Assembly: GCA_965222075.1 (NCBI GenBank)
Contig: OZ244937.1
Coordinates: 3,232,001-3,296,000 of the forward strand
Source of the DNA: Candidatus Latescibacterota bacterium
GTDB taxonomy: Bacteria > Latescibacterota > UBA2968 > GCA-2709665
Length of the DNA: 64,000 bases
Direction: 5' to 3'
Below the pieces are notes generated by a model. It had not been told where the DNA came from, ran no database searches, and worked only from the letters and a program-made list of their open reading frames with translations. Positions 2,544 to 20,535 of this stretch are shown in pieces (positions within the stretch are counted from its first letter, which is position 1; each line of letters starts with the position of its first letter). Made by a program: the position numbers and the translations under genes.

Positions 2544-3113
2544 GTGCCGATGATTCTGGTGATCGACAATTACGATTCGTTTACCTACAATCTGGTCCAG
2601 TACCTGGGGGAGTTGGGGGCCGATCTGGAGGTCTACCGGAACGATCGGATCACGCTGGAAGAAGTTGAGGGACTTGCGCCTGAGAAGATCGTGGTCTCGC
2701 CGGGACCCTGTACGCCCAACGAGGCGGGAATTTCGGTGGACCTGATCCGGACCTTTGCCGACAGGATTCCGATCCTGGGGGTCTGTCTGGGACACCAGGC
2801 GGTCGGCCAGGCCTTCGGGGGAAAGGTGGTGGGCGCGCCGACGATTATGCACGGCAAGGTCTCGGAGATCCAGCACGACGGCCGGACCATCTTCAAGGGG
2901 ATGTCCCAACCCTTTATTGCCACCCGCTACCACTCTCTGATCGTCGAGCGGGAGTGCTTGCCGGACTGTCTGGAGGTCTCCGCAGAGACCGAGGACGGAA
3001 CGGTCATGGGGCTGCGCCATCTGGAACTTCCCGTGGAGGGCGTCCAGTTCCATCCGGAGTCGATTTTGACCGTGGAGGGGAAACATCTCCTCAAGAATTT
3101 TCTGGACGCTTAA
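2544..3113 (+). CDS. trpG: Anthranilate synthase component II (glutamine amidotransferase)
   Basis: [33 protein letters not shown]. Confidence 0.96.
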
Positions 3114-3126
3114 GCAGGAGCCGGAT

Positions 3127-4176
3127 ATGACCATACAGGATGCGATTGCAAAGCTGATCGAGGGTGAGGATCTGACCCGCGAGGAGACCGTTGGGGCGAT
3201 GGACCGGATCATGTCGGGAGACGCCACGGATGCGCAGATCGGGGCATTTCTGGTCGCTTTGCGCCTCAAAGGAGAGACCGTGGAAGAGATTGCGGGGGCG
3301 GCGGAGGTGATGTGCCAGAAGGCGACCCGTATTGATACGCGGCATGAGGTGGTGGTGGATACCTGCGGCACCGGCGGAGACCATTCGGGCACGTTCAACA
3401 TTTCCACGGCGGCCGCTTTTGTGGTTTCCGGCGCGGGGCTGTGCGTGGCCAAGCACGGCAACCGGGCCATATCGAGTCTGTGCGGCAGCGCAGATGTGCT
3501 GAAGGCCTTAGGCGTGAATATCGAGGCTTCGCCCGAGACCGTGGGCCGCTGTTTGGACGAAGTGGGCATCGGCTTCCTGTTTGCTCCGGCGCTGCACGGC
3601 GCGATGAAATATGCGATCGGCCCAAGGCGTGAGCTTGGCATCCGCACCATCTTTAACGTGCTTGGCCCCCTGACCAACCCGGCGGGCGCCCGGAGACAGG
3701 TGGTCGGTGTGTACAGCGGAGGGTTGACCGAGCCCCTGGCCGAGGTCCTGGGGCGCCTCGGAGCGGAGCGGGCCTTTGTCGTGCACGGCTCGGACGGTCT
3801 GGATGAAATCACGCTGACCGGCGCCACACGGGTGAGCGAATTGCGCGATGGCTCGGCTTCCACGTATGAAATCACCCCCGAAGATTTCGGATTCTCCAGG
3901 GCCGATGCAGGAGACCTGAAGGGGGGAGATGCAAAGACGAACGCCGAGATCGTGCGCTCTGTTCTCAGCGGGGAGCCGGGAGCCAGGCGGGATATTGTGC
4001 TGCTCAATGCGGCTGCGGGCATTGTCGCCGGCGGCCTGGCCGGGGATATGTCAGGAGGGGTTGAGGCGGCCCGGCAGGCGGTGGATTCGGGGCGGGCGAT
4101 GGAGAAACTGGAAGGATTGAGAACAGCGAGCAGGGGCGGTTCGCGAACCGCCCCTACTTACCGGGGTAGAACCTGA
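3127..4176 (+). CDS. trpD: Anthranilate phosphoribosyltransferase
   Basis: [26 protein letters not shown]. The C-terminal tail is encoded by a REP. Confidence 0.97.
4130..4157. repeat. GTAG-type REP palindrome, family A, inside the trpD 3' end
   Basis: GCAGGGGCGGTTCGCGAACCGCCCCTAC, a near-perfect 28-bp palindrome. Confidence 0.8.
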
Positions 4177-8398: not shown

Positions 8399-9214
8399 AT
8401 GTCACGAATTTCGGATGCGTTTGCCCGTCTGAAGCAGCGGGGGCAAACCGGGTTCGTCGCCTATATCACGGCCGGCGATCCCGACCTGGAAACCACCCGG
8501 GCACTGGTTCTGGAACTGGAGCGTTGCGGGGTGGATATTCTCGAACTCGGGGTTCCGTTTTCCGATCCCTTAGCGGACGGACCCGAGATCCAGAGGGCCT
8601 ACCAGCGGGCGCTGAGGCACGGGATATCTCTTGCAGACGTTCTGGACCTGGTAAGCGACCTCAGAAAAGAGACCCGCATCCCGATCGTTCTGTTTACCTA
8701 TTACAACCCGGTCCACCGTTACGGGCTGGAACGCCTGGTGGACCGGGCGGCGGAGGTGGACATCGACGGGATTCTGGCGCTGGACCTCCCTCCTGAAGAG
8801 GCGGGGGATTACAAGCGGTTGATGGACGCGCGCGGCCTGGATACGATCTTTCTGATTGCGCCGACCAGCCGGGACGACCGGATTCGCTTGATTTCGTCCT
8901 GCACCACCGGATTTGTCTATTATATCTCTCGCACGGGGGTCACCGGAGAGCGGGAGCGGCTTGCGGATACGGTTCGGCCGATGGTGGAAAAGATCCGAAG
9001 CCATACCGCACACCCGATCGCCGTCGGCTTCGGGATTTCAAAGCCCGAGCATGCGAAAGAAATCGCCGGATACGCCGATGCGGTGGTAGTCGGCAGCGCC
9101 ATTGTCCGCCGCATCGGGGAGAAAGAAGGAGACACGGACCTGGTCTCCCACGTCGGCGACTTTGTGAAGAACCTGGTCCGGCCGCTGAAGGAGGAAAGGC
9201 ATGGAAATCGATGA
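8399..9214 (+). CDS. trpA: Tryptophan synthase alpha chain
   Basis: AYITAGDP, ELGVPFSDPLADGP, GVTG, VGFGIS, VVGSA. Confidence 0.98.
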   Translation: MSRISDAFARLKQRGQTGFVAYITAGDPDLETTRALVLELERCGVDILELGVPFSDPLADGPEIQRAYQRALRHGISLADVLDLVSDLRKETRIPIVLFTYYNPVHRYGLERLVDRAAEVDIDGILALDLPPEEAGDYKRLMDARGLDTIFLIAPTSRDDRIRLISSCTTGFVYYISRTGVTGERERLADTVRPMVEKIRSHTAHPIAVGFGISKPEHAKEIAGYADAVVVGSAIVRRIGEKEGDTDLVSHVGDFVKNLVRPLKEERHGNR

Positions 9215-9473
9215 CTGGCGAAAAAAAATTGATGAACTGAATGGCAAGCTGCTGGCGCTCCTGAACCAGAGAGCGCAATGTGCCCTGGAGATCGGGAAGA
9301 TCAAGCAGGCTACAGGCCAGCCGGTCTACGCCCCGGACCGGGAGACCGCGGTGCTCAACCACATCCGGGAGATGAATACGGGGCCGTTGAGCAACGACGC
9401 TGTTCAGCGGATCTTTCGACAGATCATCGATGAGTCCCTGCGCCTGGAACGGGAACACGGGGAGGGTGGATAG
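9201..9473 (+). CDS. Chorismate mutase, AroQ type, monofunctional
   Basis: WRKKIDELNGKLLALLNQR...IGKIK...PDRE pattern; 90 aa. Confidence 0.9.
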   Translation: MEIDDWRKKIDELNGKLLALLNQRAQCALEIGKIKQATGQPVYAPDRETAVLNHIREMNTGPLSNDAVQRIFRQIIDESLRLEREHGEGG

Positions 9474-9488: not shown

Positions 9489-9643
9489 CCGGGCCTCCGA
9501 CTGTAGCGCAAACTGTTCGTTTGCGCAATAAGAACACGGGGGAATAGATATCACGTTCTTCTCACCCCCCCACAAACTGACAGTTTGTGCTACGACACCC
9601 CTCCCATAAACGGACAGCTTGTACTACGACCCGCTCGCTTTTT
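9489..9643. repeat. 155-bp direct repeat, copy 1 (three GTAG REPs, family B)
   Basis: Matches 10829-10983 with 4 mismatches. REPs at 9503-9526 (+), 9571-9593 (-), 9605-9627 (-). Confidence 0.95.
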
Positions 9644-9699: not shown

Positions 9700-9900
9700 A
9701 TGACAAGTGTCACGGAAATTCAGCAAGCGATTCTATCCCTTCCCGAAGACGATTATCTTCAATTGAAACAATGGTTTAGCGAGCTGGACTGGGAAAAGTG
9801 GGACCGGCGGATTGAAGCGGATTCAAAAGGCGGAAAATTGGATTTCCTGACTGCCGAAGCCTTTGAAGCCAAAGAGAAGGGCAGGCTCAAGGAACTTTAG
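9700..9900 (+). CDS. Putative antitoxin
   Basis: 66 aa acidic protein after an AAGGAG RBS. WDRRIEADSKGGKLD resembles small partners of RelE/ParE-like toxins. Its stop abuts the toxin ATG. Confidence 0.7.
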   Translation: MTSVTEIQQAILSLPEDDYLQLKQWFSELDWEKWDRRIEADSKGGKLDFLTAEAFEAKEKGRLKEL

Positions 9901-10107
9901 ATGCACCGGACAACACCCCGCTTCCGGGCCCACTTTGAGCGACTCCCGGAATCTGTCCGAAGGGTTGCGAGACGGAATTTCCGCCTGCTCAAGGCAAACC
10001 CAAGGCATCCCTCTCTTCACTTCAGGAAAGTCGGCAAGTTTTGGTCGGTCCGCACGGGACTTTCTCACCGGGCGCTCGCCGTTGAAGTAGAACGAAATGA
10101 CAGATGA
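9901..10107 (+). CDS. RelE/ParE-like toxin, apparently C-terminally truncated
   Basis: Basic 68-aa protein with NPRHPSLHFRKVG..WSVR...HRALA. The usual final W(I)G-H..Y segment is missing, and the stop overlaps the RAYT ATG. Confidence 0.65.
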   Translation: MHRTTPRFRAHFERLPESVRRVARRNFRLLKANPRHPSLHFRKVGKFWSVRTGLSHRALAVEVERNDR

Positions 10108-10871
10108 GCCACTTTGACTACAAACCGTTCTATCGCCGCAACCTGCCACATATACAGCCGCCCGGTGCAACCTTCTTCGTCACGTTCCATCTTGCAGGTT
10201 CCCTACCGCGGACAGTCTTGCAACAATGGGCAACGGAGAAAGACCAGCTCGAAACAGAAAAATTGCGCCTTGCTAAGTTGCGAAGTAACATTCGTTTTGC
10301 CTCAGCAGAACACATTACACTTGAGAAAGAACGTGAACATCGTGAGTGGGAATGGCAACGACGGTGGTTCCGGAAATTTGAAACAACGCTAGACAAAGCG
10401 CAAAGTGGGCCCGTGTGGCTCAAAGATGAGCGAATTGCTAAAGAGGTGGCAGAGAGCCTACGCTACCGGGACGGAAAAGTGTATCGCCTGGATGCCTACT
10501 GTATCATGGCCAATCACGTACACATTGTGTTTGCACCCCTTGTGATGCAACCTTCCGTAACGCAACCTGACAGCTTGCAGGACAATGCGACCAAAGCGGA
10601 CAATTTGTGCTACAACTCGCTTTCCTCGATTATGCAATCGCTCAAAGGCTATACAGCGTGGAAAGCAAATACGCTATTGGGGCGACATGGGCCATTTTGG
10701 CAGCACGAAAGTTACGATCGAAGTATTCGGCATGCAAGTGAATGGGAGCGGATTATAACCTATGTTCTCAACAACCCGGCAAAAGCGGGTTTGGTGGATC
10801 ATTGGGAAAAGTGGCGTTGGAGTTATTACCGAGCCTCCGACTGTAGCGCAAACGGTTCGTTTGCGCAATAA
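10104..10871 (+). CDS. REP-associated tyrosine transposase (RAYT, Y1 HUH family)
   Basis: RRNLPH, FFVTF, YCIMANHVH (HUH), FWQHESYDR, YVLNNP (catalytic Tyr), W.WS; flanked by GTAG REPs. Confidence 0.92.
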   Translation: MSHFDYKPFYRRNLPHIQPPGATFFVTFHLAGSLPRTVLQQWATEKDQLETEKLRLAKLRSNIRFASAEHITLEKEREHREWEWQRRWFRKFETTLDKAQSGPVWLKDERIAKEVAESLRYRDGKVYRLDAYCIMANHVHIVFAPLVMQPSVTQPDSLQDNATKADNLCYNSLSSIMQSLKGYTAWKANTLLGRHGPFWQHESYDRSIRHASEWERIITYVLNNPAKAGLVDHWEKWRWSYYRASDCSANGSFAQ

Positions 10872-10983
10872 GAACACGGGGGAATAGATATCACGTTCTT
10901 CTCACCCCCCCACAAACTGACAGTTTGTGCTACGACACCCCTCCCATAAACGGACAGCTTGTACTACAACTCGCTCGCTTTTT
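10829..10983. repeat. 155-bp direct repeat, copy 2 (three GTAG REPs, family B)
   Basis: REPs at 10843-10866, 10911-10933 and 10945-10967. Contains the last codons and the stop of the RAYT. Confidence 0.95.
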
Positions 10984-11002
10984 TACGGAGACGATTGAAA
11001 CC

Positions 11003-12031
11003 ATGGGTTTTCAGCGCATCAAAACGCTTCCGAGCCCCGATGAGATTCGGGAAGCGATCCCCCTCTCCGGTGAGATCGCAAAGGTGAAGCAGAGGCGGGA
11101 CCGGGAGATCCAGGCCATTTTCGAGCGAAAAAGCGACAAATTCCTCGTTGTGATCGGACCGTGTTCGGCACACAATGAAGATGCGGTTTGCGAATACGTG
11201 GCGCGGCTGGCCAGGTTGCAGGAGGTGGTCGAAGAGCGGCTTCTGCTTGTGCCGAGGATTTATACCAACAAGCCCCGGACGACCGGGGAAGGCTACAAAG
11301 GGATGGGGCACCAGCCGGATCACCAGAAGGAACCCAACATTGCCGAAGGGATCTATGCGATTCGACAGATGCACCTCCGGACGATTCGAGAGTCCCACCT
11401 GACAGCGGCCGACGAGATGCTTTATCCCACCAACCTCCCCTATGTGGAGGACGTGCTGAGCTACATCGCAGTGGGCGCCCGGTCGGTGGAAAACCAGCAG
11501 CACCGTTTAACCTGCAGCGGCGTGGATGTCCCTGTGGGAATGAAGAATCCCACCGGCGGGGATATATCGGTGATGCTGAACGCAATTTATGCCTCACAGA
11601 TCCCTCACGTGTTTATCTACAATGGGTGGGAGGTGAGTACGTCCGGGAATCCCCATACCCACGGGATCTTGCGGGGAGCCGTGGATTCCTACGGCCGGAG
11701 TATTCCGAATTACCATTATGAAGATCTGATTTATATGGCGGAGGCGTATCTGGAGCACGAACTGGCGCATCCCGCGCTGATTGTGGATTGCAACCACAAC
11801 AATTCGAACAAACACTACGCCGAGCAGCCCCGGATCGGCATGGAGGTGATGCAGAGCCGCCGGAGATCCGACATCTTAAATGGGATGATCCGGGGGCTGA
11901 TGGTCGAGAGCTATCTGGTGGAAGGGTCGCAGAGCGTGGACGAAAACGTGTACGGGAAATCGATTACCGATCCCTGTCTGGGCTGGGAGGACTCCGAGGC
12001 GTTTGTGAAAGAGCTGGCGGAGGCGGTATAA
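11003..12031 (+). CDS. aroF: DAHP synthase, class I-alpha
   Basis: IGPCS, KPRTT, GARSVE, VGMKN, DCNH, SITDPCLGW. The upstream ORF extension is repeat-derived. The isoenzyme (aroF/G/H) is not resolvable by eye. Confidence 0.9.
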   Translation: MGFQRIKTLPSPDEIREAIPLSGEIAKVKQRRDREIQAIFERKSDKFLVVIGPCSAHNEDAVCEYVARLARLQEVVEERLLLVPRIYTNKPRTTGEGYKGMGHQPDHQKEPNIAEGIYAIRQMHLRTIRESHLTAADEMLYPTNLPYVEDVLSYIAVGARSVENQQHRLTCSGVDVPVGMKNPTGGDISVMLNAIYASQIPHVFIYNGWEVSTSGNPHTHGILRGAVDSYGRSIPNYHYEDLIYMAEAYLEHELAHPALIVDCNHNNSNKHYAEQPRIGMEVMQSRRRSDILNGMIRGLMVESYLVEGSQSVDENVYGKSITDPCLGWEDSEAFVKELAEAV

Positions 12032-12073: not shown

Positions 12074-13186
12074 ATGTCCAGTGATCAACCATTCTCACCG
12101 GAGCGAATCGCCATCGTCGGCGTTGGGCTGATTGGCGGGTCTCTCGGTCTGGCCTTCAAACGCCTCGGGATCGGGCGGGAGATTGTTGGGATCAGTCGGA
12201 TGGAGACTCTGGAGACGGCACAGGGGCTGGGCGTGATCGATGTCGGCTATCCGTATGAAGCGCTGGAGAGGGGTGTGCAGGCGGCCGATCTGGTTTTGCT
12301 GTGCACGCCGATTTCCCGCATCTTAAGCCTGCTTCCAGAGGTGCTGGCGAGCGTTCCCCAGGGTGCACTGGTCAGCGATGTGGGCAGCACCAAACGGGAG
12401 ATCGTTTCCCGGGCAACCTCGCTGGGACGCGGTGGGGTGCACTTTATCGGCGGACACCCGATGGCGGGTTCGGAACGAACGGGGGTTTCCGCGGCTGATC
12501 CCTTTCTTTTTCAAAATGCGATTTATGTGCTTACCCCAACTCCGGAGGTTCCCGAGGCGGTGTGCGACCACTTTGTGGATCTGGCCAAGCGGCTCGGCGC
12601 TCGGCCGATGCGTATGCACCCGGCGACACACGACCGGATCGCTGCGGCCGTCAGTCACCTGCCCCAGTTAATGGCCACGGCGCTGGTAGGCGAGATCGGC
12701 CGGCTGAACGAGGCGGACAGGCTGCCCTTGCAGATGGCCGCGGGAGGGTTCCGGGACATGACGCGGATCGCATCGAGCCCCTATGAGATGTGGCGGGATA
12801 TCTGCCAGACCAATGCAGAACCGATCCGCGAGATGATCGACCGATACATCGAAGCGCTCTGCGGCCTCCGGGAGAAGGTGGACGAGGGTGGGCTTGCAGA
12901 GGATTTCGCGTTTGCCAACCGGATTCGGAGCAGTATCCCGAAGGACTCCAAGGGGTTTTTGCATCCGCTGCACGAGATCCTGCTGGTTGTGGAGGACCGG
13001 CCGGGGGTGATTGCAAAGGTGGCGGACGCGCTGGCCGAGGCCGACATGAATATTGACGATATTGAGGTGCTCAAGGTGCGCGAGGGGGAGGGCGGGACGA
13101 TTCGTATGGGGTTTGATTCGCGGGAGACGGCAGAGCGGGCGGTCAGGATTCTGGAGAGGGTGGGATACCGGGTGCGGATGCGGTAG
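12074..13186 (+). CDS. tyrA: Prephenate/arogenate dehydrogenase with C-terminal ACT domain
   Basis: GVGLIGGS, DVGSTK, GGHPMAGSE, SHLPQ, GFRDMTRIASS, then VEDRPGVIA (ACT). Confidence 0.93.
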   Translation: MSSDQPFSPERIAIVGVGLIGGSLGLAFKRLGIGREIVGISRMETLETAQGLGVIDVGYPYEALERGVQAADLVLLCTPISRILSLLPEVLASVPQGALVSDVGSTKREIVSRATSLGRGGVHFIGGHPMAGSERTGVSAADPFLFQNAIYVLTPTPEVPEAVCDHFVDLAKRLGARPMRMHPATHDRIAAAVSHLPQLMATALVGEIGRLNEADRLPLQMAAGGFRDMTRIASSPYEMWRDICQTNAEPIREMIDRYIEALCGLREKVDEGGLAEDFAFANRIRSSIPKDSKGFLHPLHEILLVVEDRPGVIAKVADALAEADMNIDDIEVLKVREGEGGTIRMGFDSRETAERAVRILERVGYRVRMR

Positions 13187-13197
13187 GGAATTGAAAA

Positions 13198-14535
13198 TTG
13201 GGGACAATGCGTAACGCGGGAGACTTGAAGACGGTGGCAGTGACAGGGCAGACGATGGAGGCAATACAGGGGCTTTCCGGAGAGGGTGACCTTCCCGGAA
13301 ATCCGGAGATTTCGCTGATGGCGCTTGCGCTTGCGGCAAAGGCGGAGGGAGTGTCGGAGATTTGCCGGTGTTCACGGCGGCCCGATGTGGATGCCCTGGT
13401 GGACGCTCTGACGCGGTTCGGCCTGGCGGTTGAGCGGGGGGAAGAGGGGGTGAGGGTTACCGGTGGGGAGCTACAGGCGCTGGAGGGACCGCTCGATGCG
13501 GGGCGGTCGGAGGTCCTTTTCGCCTGTCTGACCGGGCTGCTGGCGGACGCGCCCTTCCAGTCGCAACTGGACGGGAATGCCGCCTGCGCTGCCCGGATCG
13601 AGCCCGTACTGGAGGCGCTGCGCGCCCTGGATGCCCCGATTTTTACACCGGCCGAAGGCATTTTTCCACTCAAGGTGGGCGGCCGTGCGTTAAAGCCGGG
13701 GCGGCACCAGGGCGGGGTGCCCAGTACGGCGGTTAAGTGCGCGGTGTTCCTGGCCGGGCTGGGGATCGAAGGTGCGGTCGAGTTGATTCAGGAGGCCCCG
13801 GGCGACGAGGACCTGGAGGTCCTGTTCAGGGCGGCGGGGGCGACGCTGGAGAAGGGGCGGGTTGAAGGAGGAATGGGGCACCGGATTGCCCTGGAAGGCC
13901 CTGTGCGCGTGCAGCCGGCCTGCCACGACGTTCCGGGAGATCCGACCGCGGCCCTGTTTTTGCTTCTTACGGCGGCGATGCTGAAGGGGTCGGAACTGAC
14001 GCTGAACGGGATGGGCAACAATTGGAAGGCCCGCCGGATGCTGGACCTGCTCCGCCGGCTGAACGTCCAGCTTGAGGTCCAGGTGACCCGGTCCGCGTCG
14101 GGTTTCTCCACGCGCCGGGTGCGCGTGGTGGGCTCCGAACTCCGGCCGATCAAGATCTCGGACCCGCAGGCGGCCCTCTTTCTAAACGAGCTTCCTTTCC
14201 TGGCGGTTGTGGGTGCCTGCGCCGGGGGGGAGACCATTATCCGGGACGCTCAGGCCCTGCGGCAGGGAAAGACCGATTGCATTGCCCTTGTGGTGGAAAA
14301 TCTCCGGAAGATGCAGGCGCACGTAGGTGAAATTCCCGATGGTCTGGTGGTGCAGGGAGGGCTTCGGCTGCAGGGGGCCGAGGTGGATGCCGGCGGGGAT
14401 TCCCGGATTGCCATGGCGTTCACGCTGGCAGGACTGGTTGCCGAAGGGGAGACGACGGTTTTGAATCGAGGGCAGATGGACCGGGATTTTTTCGGGGTTA
14501 TGGAAGCGCTGTTATCCGTTGCGCAAATCACATAA
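13198..14535 (+). CDS. EPSP-synthase (AroA) fold protein with degenerate active site
   Basis: Full length and collinear with AroA (LPG, VPGDP, ELP, GD.RIAM), but most catalytic motifs are substituted. Start could be 13207 or 13255. Confidence 0.8.
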   Translation: MGTMRNAGDLKTVAVTGQTMEAIQGLSGEGDLPGNPEISLMALALAAKAEGVSEICRCSRRPDVDALVDALTRFGLAVERGEEGVRVTGGELQALEGPLDAGRSEVLFACLTGLLADAPFQSQLDGNAACAARIEPVLEALRALDAPIFTPAEGIFPLKVGGRALKPGRHQGGVPSTAVKCAVFLAGLGIEGAVELIQEAPGDEDLEVLFRAAGATLEKGRVEGGMGHRIALEGPVRVQPACHDVPGDPTAALFLLLTAAMLKGSELTLNGMGNNWKARRMLDLLRRLNVQLEVQVTRSASGFSTRRVRVVGSELRPIKISDPQAALFLNELPFLAVVGACAGGETIIRDAQALRQGKTDCIALVVENLRKMQAHVGEIPDGLVVQGGLRLQGAEVDAGGDSRIAMAFTLAGLVAEGETTVLNRGQMDRDFFGVMEALLSVAQIT

Positions 14536-14565
14536 GAAGCTTCTTACAAAACAGAGGAGAAGACC

Positions 14566-14706
14566 ATGAGGCTGATGATCCGACTTGCCCTCCTGACGGC
14601 CCTGTTTTTACTGGGAGGCGTTGTGTTCATCCGGTATACCTACGGCTGTTCGTGGAAGGAAAGTTTCGGAATTGCGAACCAGTTTGTGTCTGATCTCGTC
14701 GGTTAG
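14566..14706 (+). CDS. 46-aa small membrane protein (below the ORF-track cutoff)
   Basis: AGAGGAG RBS; MRLMIRLALLTALFLLGGVVFIRYTYGCSWKESFGIANQFVSDLVG; fills the gap between the aroA-like gene and aroE. Confidence 0.7.
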   Translation: MRLMIRLALLTALFLLGGVVFIRYTYGCSWKESFGIANQFVSDLVG

Positions 14707-14718
14707 GGAGCAGGGCCT

Positions 14719-15579
14719 TTGAATATCCGCGCAACCACCAGGGTACTGGGGGTTATCGGACATCCGATCACCCATTCTTTTTCCCCCGATATGCACAACG
14801 CCGCAATTGACGCCCTCGGCGTCGATTTCTGCTATGTGGCGTTCCACGTGCTGCCTTCTGGGGTTGGCGCGGCCCTGCAGGGCCTGCGAGGGCTCAATAT
14901 CCGGGGGTTGAACGTGACCATCCCCCACAAGCTGGCCGTGATGACGCACTTAGACCGGATTTCCGAGGAGGCCTTAGCGGTGGGGGCTGTGAATACCATC
15001 TCCCACGAGGAGGGAGAACTGGTCGGGTACAATACCGACGTTTACGGGGTGCTCACCGCCCTGGAGAAGGCGCTACAGGCCTTCCCGGATCACTGTGTGG
15101 TTCTGGGTGCAGGGGGGGCGGCTCGGGCGGCTGTGTATGCCCTGGGGAGCCGCGCAGAGGTCCGGAGGCTGACGGTTCTCAACCGAACCGTGGCGCGGGC
15201 CGAGGCGCTTGCCCGGGATATGGAGAAGATGACCGGCAAATCCATATCGGTGGGGGCGATGGAGGCCGATACACAGGCCCGGGCGTTCGCCGATGCCGGG
15301 CTGGTGGTGAACACCACATCTTTGGGGATGCATCCGAACGTGGAGGCCTCTCCCCTGCTGGATGAGCATGCGGTGCATGCCGATCTGGTCCTCTACGATA
15401 CGGTGTTCAATCCTGCACAGACGCGGCTGATGGCGCAGTTTCGGGCGGGGGGCGCTCCGGCATACGGAGGGCTGGATATGCTGGTCTACCAGGGGGCCCG
15501 GTCCTTCGCCATCTGGACCGGCATCGAGCCGCCCACCGATGTGATGAAACAGGCCATTGCGGGCCGGTTCCCGTCCTAG
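14719..15579 (+). CDS. aroE: Shikimate dehydrogenase
   Basis: GHPITHSFSP.MHN, NVTIPHK, GAVNT, NTD, GAGGAARA, GLDMLVYQG. Confidence 0.96.
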   Translation: MNIRATTRVLGVIGHPITHSFSPDMHNAAIDALGVDFCYVAFHVLPSGVGAALQGLRGLNIRGLNVTIPHKLAVMTHLDRISEEALAVGAVNTISHEEGELVGYNTDVYGVLTALEKALQAFPDHCVVLGAGGAARAAVYALGSRAEVRRLTVLNRTVARAEALARDMEKMTGKSISVGAMEADTQARAFADAGLVVNTTSLGMHPNVEASPLLDEHAVHADLVLYDTVFNPAQTRLMAQFRAGGAPAYGGLDMLVYQGARSFAIWTGIEPPTDVMKQAIAGRFPS

Positions 15580-15581
15580 CC

Positions 15582-16319
15582 GTGAAACCGGACGTCTTTT
15601 TTCGACCCGAGGCAAAGCGGGCCTTTGTCCGGCAGATGTTCGACGGAATTGCCGGCACGTACGACCTGCTCAACCACCTGCTCAGCGCCGGCGTTGACAT
15701 CCTGTGGCGCCGGCAGACGGTCGACGGGCTGCGTCCGGTATCCGGCTGGCGCGTTCTGGATCTGGCAACGGGTACCGGAGACCTCGGGTTTGAGGCTGCA
15801 GGCCGCAACCCCGAGATCTGTGTTGTGGGTGTGGACCTTTCCCTGCCGATGCTCCGGCGGGGAGCGGGTAAGGCCGCAACCCGATCGGGTCGGATGGCCT
15901 TTTTGTGTGGCGACGCCGAACACCTTCCCTTCCCGGACCGGATATTTGAAGGGATTACCATCGGCTTCGGGGTTCGGAACCTGGCCGATCTTCACGCCGG
16001 CATCCAGGAGATGTACCGCGTCCTTTGCCCCGGAGGCAGGGTTGCCATCCTCGAATTTTCTCGTCCCCGCGCCTTCCTCTTAAGGGGGCTCTACCTCTTC
16101 TACTTCAAACATGCCCTCCCTCTGATGGGTCGGATCGTTTCCCGCGACCCTCTCGCCTATCGCTACCTTTATGAGTCCGTGATGCGGTTTCCCGAAGGCG
16201 ATGATTTCTGTCGGCATCTCCTCGATGCAGGATTTGTCGATGTTGTTGAACGTCGCTTGACATTCGGTATTGCCACCCTATATTTAGCTTCTAAGACCGT
16301 TGAAGAGGACCGGGTTTGA
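15582..16319 (+). CDS. menG: UbiE/MenG quinone C-methyltransferase
   Basis: MFD.IA..YDLLNHLLS.G.D..WR, LDLATGTGD, FGVRN, ILEFS, YRYLYESV. Confidence 0.88.
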   Translation: MKPDVFFRPEAKRAFVRQMFDGIAGTYDLLNHLLSAGVDILWRRQTVDGLRPVSGWRVLDLATGTGDLGFEAAGRNPEICVVGVDLSLPMLRRGAGKAATRSGRMAFLCGDAEHLPFPDRIFEGITIGFGVRNLADLHAGIQEMYRVLCPGGRVAILEFSRPRAFLLRGLYLFYFKHALPLMGRIVSRDPLAYRYLYESVMRFPEGDDFCRHLLDAGFVDVVERRLTFGIATLYLASKTVEEDRV

Positions 16320-16367: not shown

Positions 16368-16853
16368 ATGCCGGATGTGATACCAGTCGGACTCATACAA
16401 GCCGTTCTGATTCTTGCGCCTTTGATCCTGGCCCTGTCGATTGGGGCGCACCGCCGCCTTCGGCGACATGTGTATTCCAGCCCGGAGCCGATCGCTTTTT
16501 TTCGGAATTTCCGGTGGAACTCCTGTCTGATCCTGATCGGGAGCATTTTTCTGCTGAGGGGGGCCGCAGGCGCGTATGCGCTGGGGCGCGTGGCTCAGGT
16601 TTGCGGGTTGATTCTGGCGCTGGAATTCTTCTATGTGGCCTATGCGAACCTCCACATGGTGATGAGCGCGAAGGGGCTGCTGATGGGCATGAGTTTTTCT
16701 CCCTGGCGTCGCTTTGCCGGTTATACCTGGCTTTCGGACCACGATTTGGAACTGCACTCCCGCTCCCGGCGCCGGTACCGCCTTCGCGTACCGGCGCACA
16801 TGAAGGCGTATGTGCAGGAGATCGTGGATCTGAACATTCTGAAGGAAAGATAA
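16368..16853 (+). CDS. Hypothetical membrane protein
   Basis: About three hydrophobic segments plus a soluble C-terminal part; fits between menG and argS. Confidence 0.65.
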   Translation: MPDVIPVGLIQAVLILAPLILALSIGAHRRLRRHVYSSPEPIAFFRNFRWNSCLILIGSIFLLRGAAGAYALGRVAQVCGLILALEFFYVAYANLHMVMSAKGLLMGMSFSPWRRFAGYTWLSDHDLELHSRSRRRYRLRVPAHMKAYVQEIVDLNILKER

Positions 16854-18596: not shown

Positions 18597-18717
18597 AAGC
18601 AGGGGGCAGAATTTCGGATTTCGGACCGCAATCCGCTTGATGAAACCGCCGCTGTGGAGCTTGCGAGGAATGCTACCAGAAGAAACGTGCGGAGCGGCTG
18701 GCGAAGAGGCAGGGGCC

Positions 18718-19416: not shown

Positions 19417-20535
19417 GTGGAGACGGTTAGGGTCAACCTGGGCAGCCGGAGTTATCCGATTCGGATCGGACACGGGGTTCTGGCGAATTTCGGAGCGGCA
19501 TACGTGGAGCGGGGGCTGGGGAAGTCCGCTGCGATTGTGACGAATCCGACGGTGGCAGCGCATTATCTGGAGCCGGTGCAGAACAGTTTGTCGGCGGCGG
19601 AGGTTAAGGTGGCGGTGGTGACGATGCCCGACGGAGAGGCTTACAAGACGCTGGAGACGGCGGGGACTATTTGCGGCGACCTGATCCGGGCGGGGTTGGA
19701 CCGGGGGTCCTGCATTGTGGCGTTGGGCGGGGGCGTGGTGGGCGATACGGCGGGGTTTGTGGCGGCGACCTACCTGCGGGGGATCGATTTCGTGCAGGCG
19801 CCGACCACGCTGGAGGCGCAGGTGGATGCGAGTGTGGGGGGAAAGACGGCGGTGGACCACCCACTGGGGAAGAATATGATTGGGGCCTTTCACCAGCCCC
19901 GGATGGTGTACATCGATACGGATACGCTGCGCAGCCTGCCCCGGCGGGAGGTGGCCGCAGGGATGACCGAGGTGATCAAGCACGGGCTGATTCGGGACCC
20001 GGGGCTGGTTGCCTTCTTAGAGGAGAAGCTCGAAGCACTTGTGGACCTGAAGGTGGCGCCGGAGGAGATCGACTGGTTGATCGCTCAAAACTGCCGGATC
20101 AAGGCGAGGGTCGTGGAGGCGGACGAGACGGAGGCGGGACTGCGGGAGATTCTGAACTACGGGCATACGGTGGGGCACGCGATTGAGGTGGTGACGGACT
20201 ATCAGGTCTACAAGCACGGGGAGGCGGTGCGTCTGGGGATGCTGGCGGCGGGGAAGGTCGCGCTGGACAAGGGGTTTTGGGGTGAGGCCGATTTCGAGCG
20301 GCAGAACGGGCTGATCCAGCGGCTGGGGGTTCCAGAGGGGGCAGAGAATCTGGATGTGAACAGGCTGCTGGAGCGGATGGAGAGCGACAAAAAGGCCCGG
20401 GGCGGGGTGATCCGGTTCGTGCTGCCCGAAGCGATAGGTCGCGCCGTTTCCTGCGATACGGTAACGCGCTGCGAGATGGGGGCGGGGATTCGCTATATGC
20501 AGCGGTGTTCGGCGGGGGAGGGTCAGAAGCCCTGA
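19417..20535 (+). CDS. aroB: 3-dehydroquinate synthase
   Basis: GEAYK, ALGGGVVGD, PTTL.AQVDASVGGKT, LNYGHT.GHAIE, HGEAV. Confidence 0.97.
   Translation: METVRVNLGSRSYPIRIGHGVLANFGAAYVERGLGKSAAIVTNPTVAAHYLEPVQNSLSAAEVKVAVVTMPDGEAYKTLETAGTICGDLIRAGLDRGSCIVALGGGVVGDTAGFVAATYLRGIDFVQAPTTLEAQVDASVGGKTAVDHPLGKNMIGAFHQPRMVYIDTDTLRSLPRREVAAGMTEVIKHGLIRDPGLVAFLEEKLEALVDLKVAPEEIDWLIAQNCRIKARVVEADETEAGLREILNYGHTVGHAIEVVTDYQVYKHGEAVRLGMLAAGKVALDKGFWGEADFERQNGLIQRLGVPEGAENLDVNRLLERMESDKKARGGVIRFVLPEAIGRAVSCDTVTRCEMGAGIRYMQRCSAGEGQKP

Follow-up and report, generated by a model that had tools for sequence, protein, structure and literature searches.

RESULTS

An EPSP synthase homolog with a replaced active site lies between tyrA and aroE

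We analyzed a 64,000-nucleotide stretch of the genome of a Candidatus Latescibacterota bacterium (assembly GCA_965222075.1, contig OZ244937.1, positions 3,232,001 to 3,296,000, forward strand), referred to below as the window, with positions counted from its first nucleotide. The slot for aroA in an aromatic amino acid operon of this window holds a homolog of 5-enolpyruvylshikimate-3-phosphate synthase (EPSP synthase, or EPSPS) in which most substrate-binding and catalytic residues are replaced. We refer to this gene and its product as psAroA.

13198..14535, + strand: psAroA, a probable catalytically dead EPSP synthase paralog of 445 amino acids, from the open reading frame (ORF), the PF00275 match, the active-site changes and the AlphaFold2 (AF2) model

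The start codon is TTG, with alternatives that include an ATG at codon 4 and leave the start uncertain within the first 15 codons, and residues 1 to 15 are disordered in the AF2 model. The Pfam family EPSP_synthase (PF00275) matches the whole of psAroA at 187 bits (cutoff, 22.8), and the score against the NCBI aroA equivalog model TIGR01356 is 177 bits, below its cutoff of 287.25. Scores against the MurA models TIGR01072 and NF006873 are 49 to 52 bits, also below cutoff (297 to 393), and the top NCBIfam match is NF011381, a model of bifunctional TyrA-EPSPS proteins. The nearest solved structures are EPSPS of class II type, from Coxiella (3roi and 4gfp; E of ~1e-48 by HMMER), Bacillus halodurans (3rmt) and Agrobacterium CP4 (2gg4). 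The AF2 model, built from an alignment of 43 members of the clade described below, has a predicted local distance difference test score (pLDDT) of 93.7 and a predicted template modeling score (pTM) of 0.91, and its best Foldseek matches are all EPSPS. Class II EPSPS (EC 2.5.1.19; Coxiella burnetii 3roi, 3slh and 4egr, B. halodurans 3rmt, and CP4 2gg6) share its fold, with template modeling (TM) scores of 0.78 to 0.82 and 27 to 32% identity. The two-domain enolpyruvyl-transferase fold is predicted from this model to be intact, which agrees with the persistence of about 440 open codons and of structural motifs that an earlier note on this DNA, made from the sequence alone, had described.

On a HMMER alignment to Coxiella AroA (3roi/4gfp), psAroA has P33-G-N-P-E-I-S-L-M41 where PGxKSxSxR is expected, and GNxGT is replaced by G102-R-S-E-V106, SxQ by S176-T-A178, the catalytic Asp by N330, RxKExDR by R355-Q-G-K-T-D-C361, and DHR by D401-S-R403. 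Overall, 15 of 17 substrate-binding or catalytic positions differ from the canonical residue (K22, S23, R27, N94, G96, T97, R100, R124, S170, Q171, D313, K340, E341, R344, and H385 in Escherichia coli numbers), and only S169 and R386 are retained. The E. coli numbers come from an alignment between E. coli EPSPS (2qfq) and the canonical AroA of the host, and we take the substrate role of each of the 17 residues to be as generally given for EPSPS. Two positions were left out of this count: N336, which is His in the host's own canonical AroA and Ala353 in psAroA, and K411, whose alignment in class II proteins is unreliable. The altered motifs quoted in the earlier note are therefore all present, as are the replacements that it had proposed at K22, R27, Q171, D313, K340/E341, R344, and H385, and a proper alignment does not restore the catalytic residues.

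The same loss extends to all close relatives of psAroA. A sequence database search returned 48 cluster representatives at 45 to 99% identity (294 to 916 bits), after which identity drops to 38% or less and the matches are canonical AroAs. In a joint alignment of 76 rows from this clade (63 of them full length) and 44 canonical rows (41 fully covered), every one of the 63 full-length clade members retains only 1 to 5 of the 17 residues (median, 2), in contrast to 9 to 17 (median, 16) in the 41 canonical AroAs, and the 22 closest canonical matches have the key residues intact wherever the column is covered. Since the loss is common to all 63 clade rows and not to the canonical ones, neither chance nor misalignment accounts for it. 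Homology to an enzyme is thus combined with a loss of catalytic residues that is common to the whole clade, while three structural residues (R338, D343, and D384) are invariant in both the clade and the canonical AroAs. The replacements at the active-site positions also differ from member to member. Mean column entropy at the 17 sites is 1.95 bits in the clade versus 0.24 in canonical AroAs, and the protein-wide means are 1.52 and 1.85 bits, respectively. On these alignments, the old active site is the least constrained part of psAroA. Because variability at the former binding sites exceeds the mean of the whole protein, this pattern suggests that the pocket was lost rather than given over to new chemistry.

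A canonical AroA is encoded elsewhere in the same genomes

The host genome (5.36 Mb in one contig) has three PF00275 genes, which encode psAroA, one MurA, and one canonical AroA. psAroA is the only match inside the 64-kb window, so that, as the earlier note had it, no canonical aroA lies there; a search of the whole genome places the canonical gene 1.29 Mb away.

C1:4531345-4532577: canonical AroA, 436 amino acids, all motifs intact

This second AroA is class I-like, scoring 360 to 365 bits to plant and E. coli EPSPS versus ~131 bits to Coxiella EPSPS. It groups with a haloarchaeal sequence in a quick tree. The MurA gene (L002; G000:C1:3559648-3560874) encodes an Asp where E. coli MurA has the fosfomycin-reactive Cys115; we presume this numbering, and the link of this position to intrinsic fosfomycin insensitivity, to hold here. 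AroC, AroQ, and prephenate dehydratase are all encoded in the host genome, so that the pathway is complete and psAroA fills no gap in it; a role for psAroA as a stand-in for a missing pathway enzyme was rejected on these grounds.

The same arrangement is found across the order to which the host belongs. A second AroA above the TIGR01356 cutoff is present in 40 of 41 genomes, the single miss being a 320-contig assembly; psAroA orthologs score 84 to 178 bits with this model, and the second AroAs of the same genomes score 419 to 461. With the five genomes checked in family f4 (families are numbered f1 to f12 here), all of which have one, the genome with the dead copy also encodes an active enzyme for this step in 40 of 41 and 5 of 5 cases. 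These data bear on whether psAroA could still act as an EPSP synthase through an unusual active site. Its position in the aroA slot, its retained fold, and the label 3-phosphoshikimate 1-carboxyvinyltransferase given by some sources would fit such an enzyme, but the 15 changed positions vary among members, the score lies under the equivalog cutoff, the same genomes encode a canonical AroA, and the single-domain forms described below cannot build a two-domain active site. We give this alternative almost no credence.

Records of the close relatives of psAroA are assigned to Candidatus Latescibacterota, with a few labeled Gemmatimonadetes or Gemmatimonadota or simply bacterium. In a tree, the dead clade is monophyletic (SH-aLRT support of 100 in the Shimodaira-Hasegawa-like approximate likelihood ratio test), with a stem branch of 1.13 substitutions per site. 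Because its sister group is a trifurcation, a class II ancestry is drawn from similarity scores and synteny and not from the tree. All but one of the 41 genomes of the order have the dead copy, and the clade profile matches 154 of 168 genomes of the phylum. Among 16 operon loci inspected, the copy in the operon is dead in 6 genomes of family f4 and 2 of f3, like the copies in f1 and f2, and it is canonical in f5, f6, f7, f9, f11, and f12 (6 genomes). At E values of ≤1e-60, a class I-like AroA is found in 20 of 21 genomes of f1, 31 of 31 of f2, 3 of 3 of f3, and 38 of 76 of f4, whereas none was found among 16 genomes from the six families whose operon copy is live. Five f4 genomes that lack the class I-like protein have another AroA above the cutoff (338 to 362 bits). 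All lineages examined in the class of the window therefore have both a dead operon copy and a second AroA, in contrast to other Latescibacterota classes, in which the AroA of this slot is live. The simplest history is that the ancestral operon AroA was of class II type, that a second AroA was gained in the ancestor of this class, and that the operon copy then lost catalysis. A Gly common at the K340 position suggests that this loss may have happened once.

psAroA sequences evolve under constraint

We calculated ratios of nonsynonymous to synonymous substitution rates (dN/dS) by the Nei-Gojobori method (NG86) between the host genome (G000) and three relatives at 90, 76, and 59% identity. The values for psAroA are 0.27, 0.25, and 0.19, respectively, in comparisons that reach saturated dS (up to 1.6). 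The corresponding values are 0.20, 0.13, and 0.12 for TyrA; 0.16, 0.15, and 0.075 for AroE; and 0.26, 0.21, and 0.14 for the real AroA. The two halves of psAroA give similar values (0.27/0.27, 0.25/0.24, and 0.23/0.16). With the shortened forms considered below, dN/dS is 0.14 to 0.27 in three kinds of comparison. psAroA is thus under purifying selection, slightly weaker than that on its neighbors, and we conclude that it is almost certainly both dead and selected. The orthologs, which have the same dismantled site and a dN/dS far below 1, bear out the proposal of the earlier note that a selected pseudoenzyme sits in the aroA position, as do the canonical AroA elsewhere in the genome and the intact fold.

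Relatives of psAroA have lost domain 2 in frame

The three segments of psAroA that matter for its domain layout are as follows.

13246..13290, + strand: residues 17 to 31, N-terminal beta-strands that belong structurally to domain 1 (strands at residues 18 to 20 and 25 to 31 in the model), kept in single-domain relatives
13291..13926, + strand: residues 32 to 243, domain 2, dispensable in relatives, with in-frame excision in genus g6 and family f3
13927..14532, + strand: residues 244 to 445, the bulk of domain 1, which is also the conserved core, from conservation, invariant columns, and dN/dS

Within the clade, the C-terminal half is more conserved than the N-terminal half (mean top-residue frequency of 0.67 versus 0.57). 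The alignment of 43 sequences has 36 invariant columns, nine of them Arg, most of which lie in residues 244 to 445, and clade-specific invariant residues cluster in domain 1. Arg residues that do not vary in the clade include those at positions 279, 280, 286, 306, 316, 349, 355, and 370.

In genus g6, the gene encodes only 214 to 224 amino acids. This form is found in 21 genomes of the phylum set and in 17 cluster representatives at 73 to 94% identity, on contigs of up to 5.6 Mb. After its N-terminal strands, the sequence continues in frame at residue 244, with residues 32 to 243 excised exactly, and the junction sits between two D-x-P-G motifs. A single-domain form, of 223 to 228 amino acids, occurs in family f3 as well. 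Since the g6 form is 74% identical to a full-length relative and only 36% identical to the f3 form, the excisions are independent, and at least two lineages have cut out domain 2 precisely. An AF2 model of the single-domain form, also built from a clade-only alignment, is a compact, complete domain with the N-terminal strands in place (pLDDT of 94.5 and pTM of 0.91). It aligns with EPSPS domain 1 at a Z score of 27.3 over 214 residues, and its best structural match is an Acinetobacter baumannii entry whose chain is numbered 314 to 751. Among look-alikes of this form in the ESM Atlas, with PF00275 skipped, we found only unnamed clusters, under 0.9. Median dN/dS of the single-domain forms is 0.14 over 104 pairs, compared to 0.11 for TyrA and 0.135 for AroE of the same genomes. 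Where domain 2 is retained, it is still under purifying selection, with a dN/dS of 0.23 to 0.27. We are fairly confident that domain 1 (the N-terminal strands plus residues 244 to 445) is the functional core.

Shortening of the gene could also be read as slow decay, in which psAroA is a relic whose frame stays open only because it lies in a packed operon, through polarity, translational coupling, or the cost of misfolded fragments. There is a series of reduction, from the full-length gene to the single-domain forms of g6 and f3, to a remnant of ~160 C-terminal residues in genome G003, to complete loss in genome G009; full-length dN/dS is a little above that of the neighbors; and a few f4 matches contain one stop codon, which may be the genes' own terminal stops. 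The low dN/dS values at saturated dS, however, indicate that amino acids are selected and not merely an open frame, and the short G003 remnant still shares 80% identity with its full-length congener, at a dN/dS of 0.19. The 36 invariant columns, the very confident AF2 models obtained from clade-only alignments, deletions that follow domain boundaries exactly, and persistence in four families of the class also count against decay, which we regard as highly improbable.

Domain 1 might instead bind a small anionic metabolite at its helix N termini as a sensor, or run a new reaction, with no protein partner. Clade-invariant polar residues do lie in loops of the old cleft (G357, which replaces K340, and R355, D360, D401, R403, E345-T346, R349, and D350). 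R403, the equivalent of R386, is retained in 66 of 76 rows; Cys is conserved at positions 58 and 110, and 47 of 76 rows have Cys where R344 is expected; and the nine invariant Arg could also serve such a ligand. Of these residues, however, R355, D360, and D401 do not vary in canonical AroAs either and are therefore structural, and three of the conserved Cys lie within, or depend on, the dispensable domain. The old binding positions are also more variable than the protein as a whole, half of the old pocket can be deleted, and the single-domain forms have no consistent charge (isoelectric points of 4.7 to 9.8). A ligand-binding or newly catalytic psAroA is accordingly unlikely in our view, so that of the two possibilities raised by the earlier note, the pseudoenzyme stands and a new activity on the fold is the less likely, given a hypervariable pocket and a domain 2 that several lineages have deleted without relaxed selection on the rest. 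The same spread of isoelectric points gave no consistent hint of nucleic acid binding, and this candidate role was set aside.

The surrounding aromatic supraoperon

In the window, the supraoperon has the order TrpE (at 1064), TrpC, TrpF, TrpA, chorismate mutase, a 1.3-kb insert, 3-deoxy-D-arabino-heptulosonate 7-phosphate (DAHP) synthase, TyrA, psAroA, a 46-amino-acid ORF, AroE, UbiE, a membrane ORF, ArgS, AroK (at 18637), and AroB (at 19417). The features closest to psAroA are listed here.

9201-9473: chorismate mutase
10925..12031, + strand: DAHP synthase (Pfam DAHP_synth_1), with a listed TTG start inside a repeat and a true start that is probably later
12074..13186, + strand: tyrA, prephenate dehydrogenase with a C-terminal ACT domain (Pfam PDH_N, PDH_C, and ACT)
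14566..14706, + strand: small ORF of 46 amino acids in the gap from psAroA to aroE, with one hydrophobic helix and, after it, a near-invariant aromatic and acidic tail
14719..15579, + strand: aroE, shikimate dehydrogenase (Pfam Shikimate_dh_N, SDH_C, and Shikimate_DH)
15582..16319, + strand: methyltransferase of the ubiE/menG type (Pfam Ubie_methyltran)

The spacers are 11 nucleotides (nt) between tyrA and psAroA, 30 nt between psAroA and the small ORF, 12 nt between the small ORF and aroE, and 2 nt between aroE and ubiE. The order TyrA-psAroA-AroE-UbiE-ArgS is conserved over 37 Latescibacterota loci: TyrA lies 5' of psAroA in 36 (the 37th ends at a contig end), AroE lies 3' of it in all 37, and UbiE is the next gene after aroE in 36 (the 37th is cut). 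A canonical AroA is often found in the same position after TyrA in outgroups, among them Bacillota, Chloroflexota, and Acetothermia. Contigs at ≥99% identity from four RNA libraries of one study (X14 to X17, labeled sponge metagenome) cover tyrA, psAroA (positions 13821 to 14559 only), the small ORF, aroE, and ubiE, which fits transcription of the operon; we attach no meaning to the missing coverage of 13198 to 13820.

The small ORF, which is without annotation, is preceded by a GAGGAG-type ribosome site. It is present in every Latescibacterota locus that spans the gap, including those of G050, which has a canonical operon AroA, and of G009, which has lost psAroA. It has 13 invariant columns and 24 cluster representatives in a library of 1.84 billion sequences, and a Pfam search with it returned no family. 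One representative (P0214, 108 amino acids) runs straight into the AroE N terminus, a hint that the 46-amino-acid protein may work with AroE.

A direct repeat of 155 nt (9489-9643 and 10829-10983, 97% identical) flanks the 1,340-bp insert between the genes for chorismate mutase and DAHP synthase. The insert contains an ORF of 255 amino acids (10104-10871) with a weak, subthreshold match to an IS200-like Y1 transposase (E of 0.003), small ORFs at 9700-9900 and 9901-10107, and 32-nt internal repeats. Because the listed TTG of DAHP synthase (10925) falls within the repeat, the true start is probably downstream. In the gap between ubiE and argS there is a hydrophobic ORF of 161 amino acids (16368-16853, + strand) without a Pfam match. 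In one locus from a metagenome-assembled genome (L052:5498-6355), a single in-frame stop codon lies within the aroE match and could reflect either a sequencing error or a broken gene. A search of positions 1 to 22000 of the window at Rfam gathering thresholds gave no match.

Candidate partners of psAroA

A pocket that is unconstrained, and half of which can be deleted, would leave no conserved ligand in the cleft, and from this we infer that psAroA may act by binding. Tight operon spacing, conserved synteny, and the TyrA-EPSPS fusion model as the top NCBIfam match point to a partner among the neighboring gene products. TyrA is the first candidate, because its gene adjoins psAroA upstream with the 11-nt spacer, because in Proteobacteria an EPSPS of this type is joined to the TyrA C terminus, as in the top NCBIfam model and in line with the A. 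baumannii chain numbered 314 to 751, and because there is a precedent in Pseudomonas syringae that is considered in the Discussion.

Several findings weigh against this line of reasoning. The genome of G009 (95% complete, one species of genus g2) has lost psAroA with tyrA, the small ORF, and aroE intact, so that any partner can do without psAroA. In this locus (L131, G009:C15:221035-225144), ~190 nt lie between tyrA and the small ORF, after which comes aroE. The single-domain gene of locus L096 does not adjoin tyrA, as an insert of 1.3 kb lies between them. A search of the clade for TyrA-psAroA fusions found none, the 41 longer relatives all being 398 to 448 amino acids long with a match to PF00275 only, although this is weak evidence. 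A mirror-tree analysis of the distance matrices of TyrA, psAroA domain 1, AroE, and UbiE over 33 loci gave raw correlations (r) of 0.90 to 0.97 for all pairs and partial r values of 0.18 to 0.62, with a partial r of 0.18 for TyrA versus 0.41 for AroE and UbiE, a result that neither favors TyrA nor distinguishes any other partner. In addition, dN/dS of full-length psAroA is somewhat above that of TyrA and AroE, and the RNA contigs are of low depth, so that DNA carry-over is possible.

The sequence inserted between tyrA and the single-domain gene in this f3 genome (L096/L143, ~2590-3790) consists of a small ORF and an ORF of 321 amino acids, whose product, judged by its sequence alone, looks like a phosphotransferase of the aminoglycoside/choline kinase type.

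DISCUSSION

The data presented here indicate that psAroA is almost certainly not an EPSP synthase, that it is selected, and that domain 1 is the selected unit. In the mechanism that we propose, psAroA would descend from an EPSPS of class II type that served an operon of trpA, chorismate mutase, DAHP synthase, tyrA, aroA, the small ORF, aroE, ubiE, and argS. A second AroA, class I-like in the host, would have taken over the reaction in the ancestor of the class, and the operon copy would then have shed its substrate-binding and catalytic residues yet stayed under purifying selection, with domain 1 as the putative unit of selection and domain 2 cleanly removable. Up to and including the step in which psAroA works without catalysis, this is the best explanation that we have, and on balance we consider it probable. 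Beyond this point, psAroA may be made stoichiometrically with TyrA, the 46-amino-acid protein, AroE, and UbiE and may bind a partner from the same transcript. Action by protein binding is a tentative proposal that we would place slightly below an even chance. The identity of the partner is harder to predict: TyrA is the first candidate, with the small ORF product and AroE as others, but that TyrA itself is the partner is doubtful.

psAroA resembles class II EPSPS in its structural R338, D343, and D384 and in gene position, since many loci of Bacillota, Chloroflexota, and Acetothermia likewise have the EPSPS gene next after tyrA within an aromatic operon. It is unlike them in having 15 of 17 residues replaced, in scoring under the TIGR01356 cutoff, in its long stem branch (1.13), and in being redundant with a real AroA. 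The nearest published item is a remark of 2005 on P. syringae. As reported there (Song, Bonner, Wolinsky, and Jensen, 2005, BMC Biol 3:13, PMC1173090), the EPSPS portion of a TyrA-EPSPS (AroF) fusion shed ~200 N-terminal residues on the gain of a stand-alone EPSPS, and the remnant was suggested as a possible regulatory domain. As far as this description allows a comparison, the two cases are alike in that a TyrA-linked EPSPS lost catalysis when a second EPSPS was gained, and the N-terminal deletion parallels the single-domain forms. A deletion of about this size is seen in the g6 and f3 relatives and is absent from psAroA, and a second EPSPS is present. In contrast to the remnant described for P. 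syringae, which is fused to TyrA, psAroA is a separate ORF beginning 11 nt downstream of tyrA and keeps both domains. The Latescibacterota case also differs from what is described there in that it is old, at the level of a class, and in that purifying selection was measured. Our search for TyrA-EPSPS fusions retrieved four loci, of Oceanospirillales type.

HisZ, a catalytically inert homolog that serves as the regulatory subunit of ATP phosphoribosyltransferase, is a pseudoenzyme for which partner and allosteric role are known. Like HisZ, psAroA is an inert enzyme homolog kept by selection, and its gene belongs to an operon for the pathway in which it may have a role. EPSPS are monomeric, so that, unlike in the case of HisZ, no inherited oligomer interface would be expected. 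Rcl1 is a noncatalytic member of the same fold superfamily that acts by binding Bms1. Rcl1 (4clq and 5oql) and RtcA align with the single-domain model at Z scores of 10.7 to 12.5 over ~190 residues, with 7 to 11% identity. The likeness of Rcl1 to single-domain psAroA is one of fold only, with no sequence relationship, and does not count as evidence for an RNA-related function.

Supplementary files aside, our literature searches turned up no account of this clade or of any stand-alone EPSPS pseudoenzyme. The available part of a preprint on EPSPS classification (10.1101/2020.05.27.118265) includes "unclassified" EPSPS and has no mention of inactive, pseudogene, non-functional, or paralog.

Pseudoenzymes that derive from a displaced metabolic enzyme are of a known kind, and what deserves attention here is the natural excision of a domain, the enzyme-like constraint on domain 1, and the misannotation. 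Members of the clade are labeled 3-phosphoshikimate 1-carboxyvinyltransferase by several sources, and both pathway reconstructions and predictions of glyphosate sensitivity from EPSPS class would read the wrong gene; psAroA is almost certainly not the glyphosate target, and the real enzyme in the host is the class I-like AroA elsewhere in the genome. The locus is a clear natural example of an enzyme that was displaced by a xenolog and then kept over the long term as a pseudoenzyme. It is also a natural domain dissection, in which domain 2 was removed and domain 1 was kept under enzyme-like constraint.

A further proposal, which we put forward as rather doubtful, is that domain 1 of TyrA-linked class II EPSPS could work on its own as an adaptor or a regulatory module, serving either TyrA or a membrane-tethered assembly of TyrA and AroE that includes the 46-amino-acid protein. 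If so, a hidden second job of EPSPS domain 1 would explain the dead copies and remnants that lie beside tyrA or are fused with it in lineages as unrelated as Latescibacterota and P. syringae, and the excised form of 214 to 224 amino acids would be the minimal module. Should domain 1 partner TyrA or another protein of the pathway, this would add a new layer to the organization or regulation of aromatic amino acid synthesis, and the remark of 2005 on P. syringae would be explained too.

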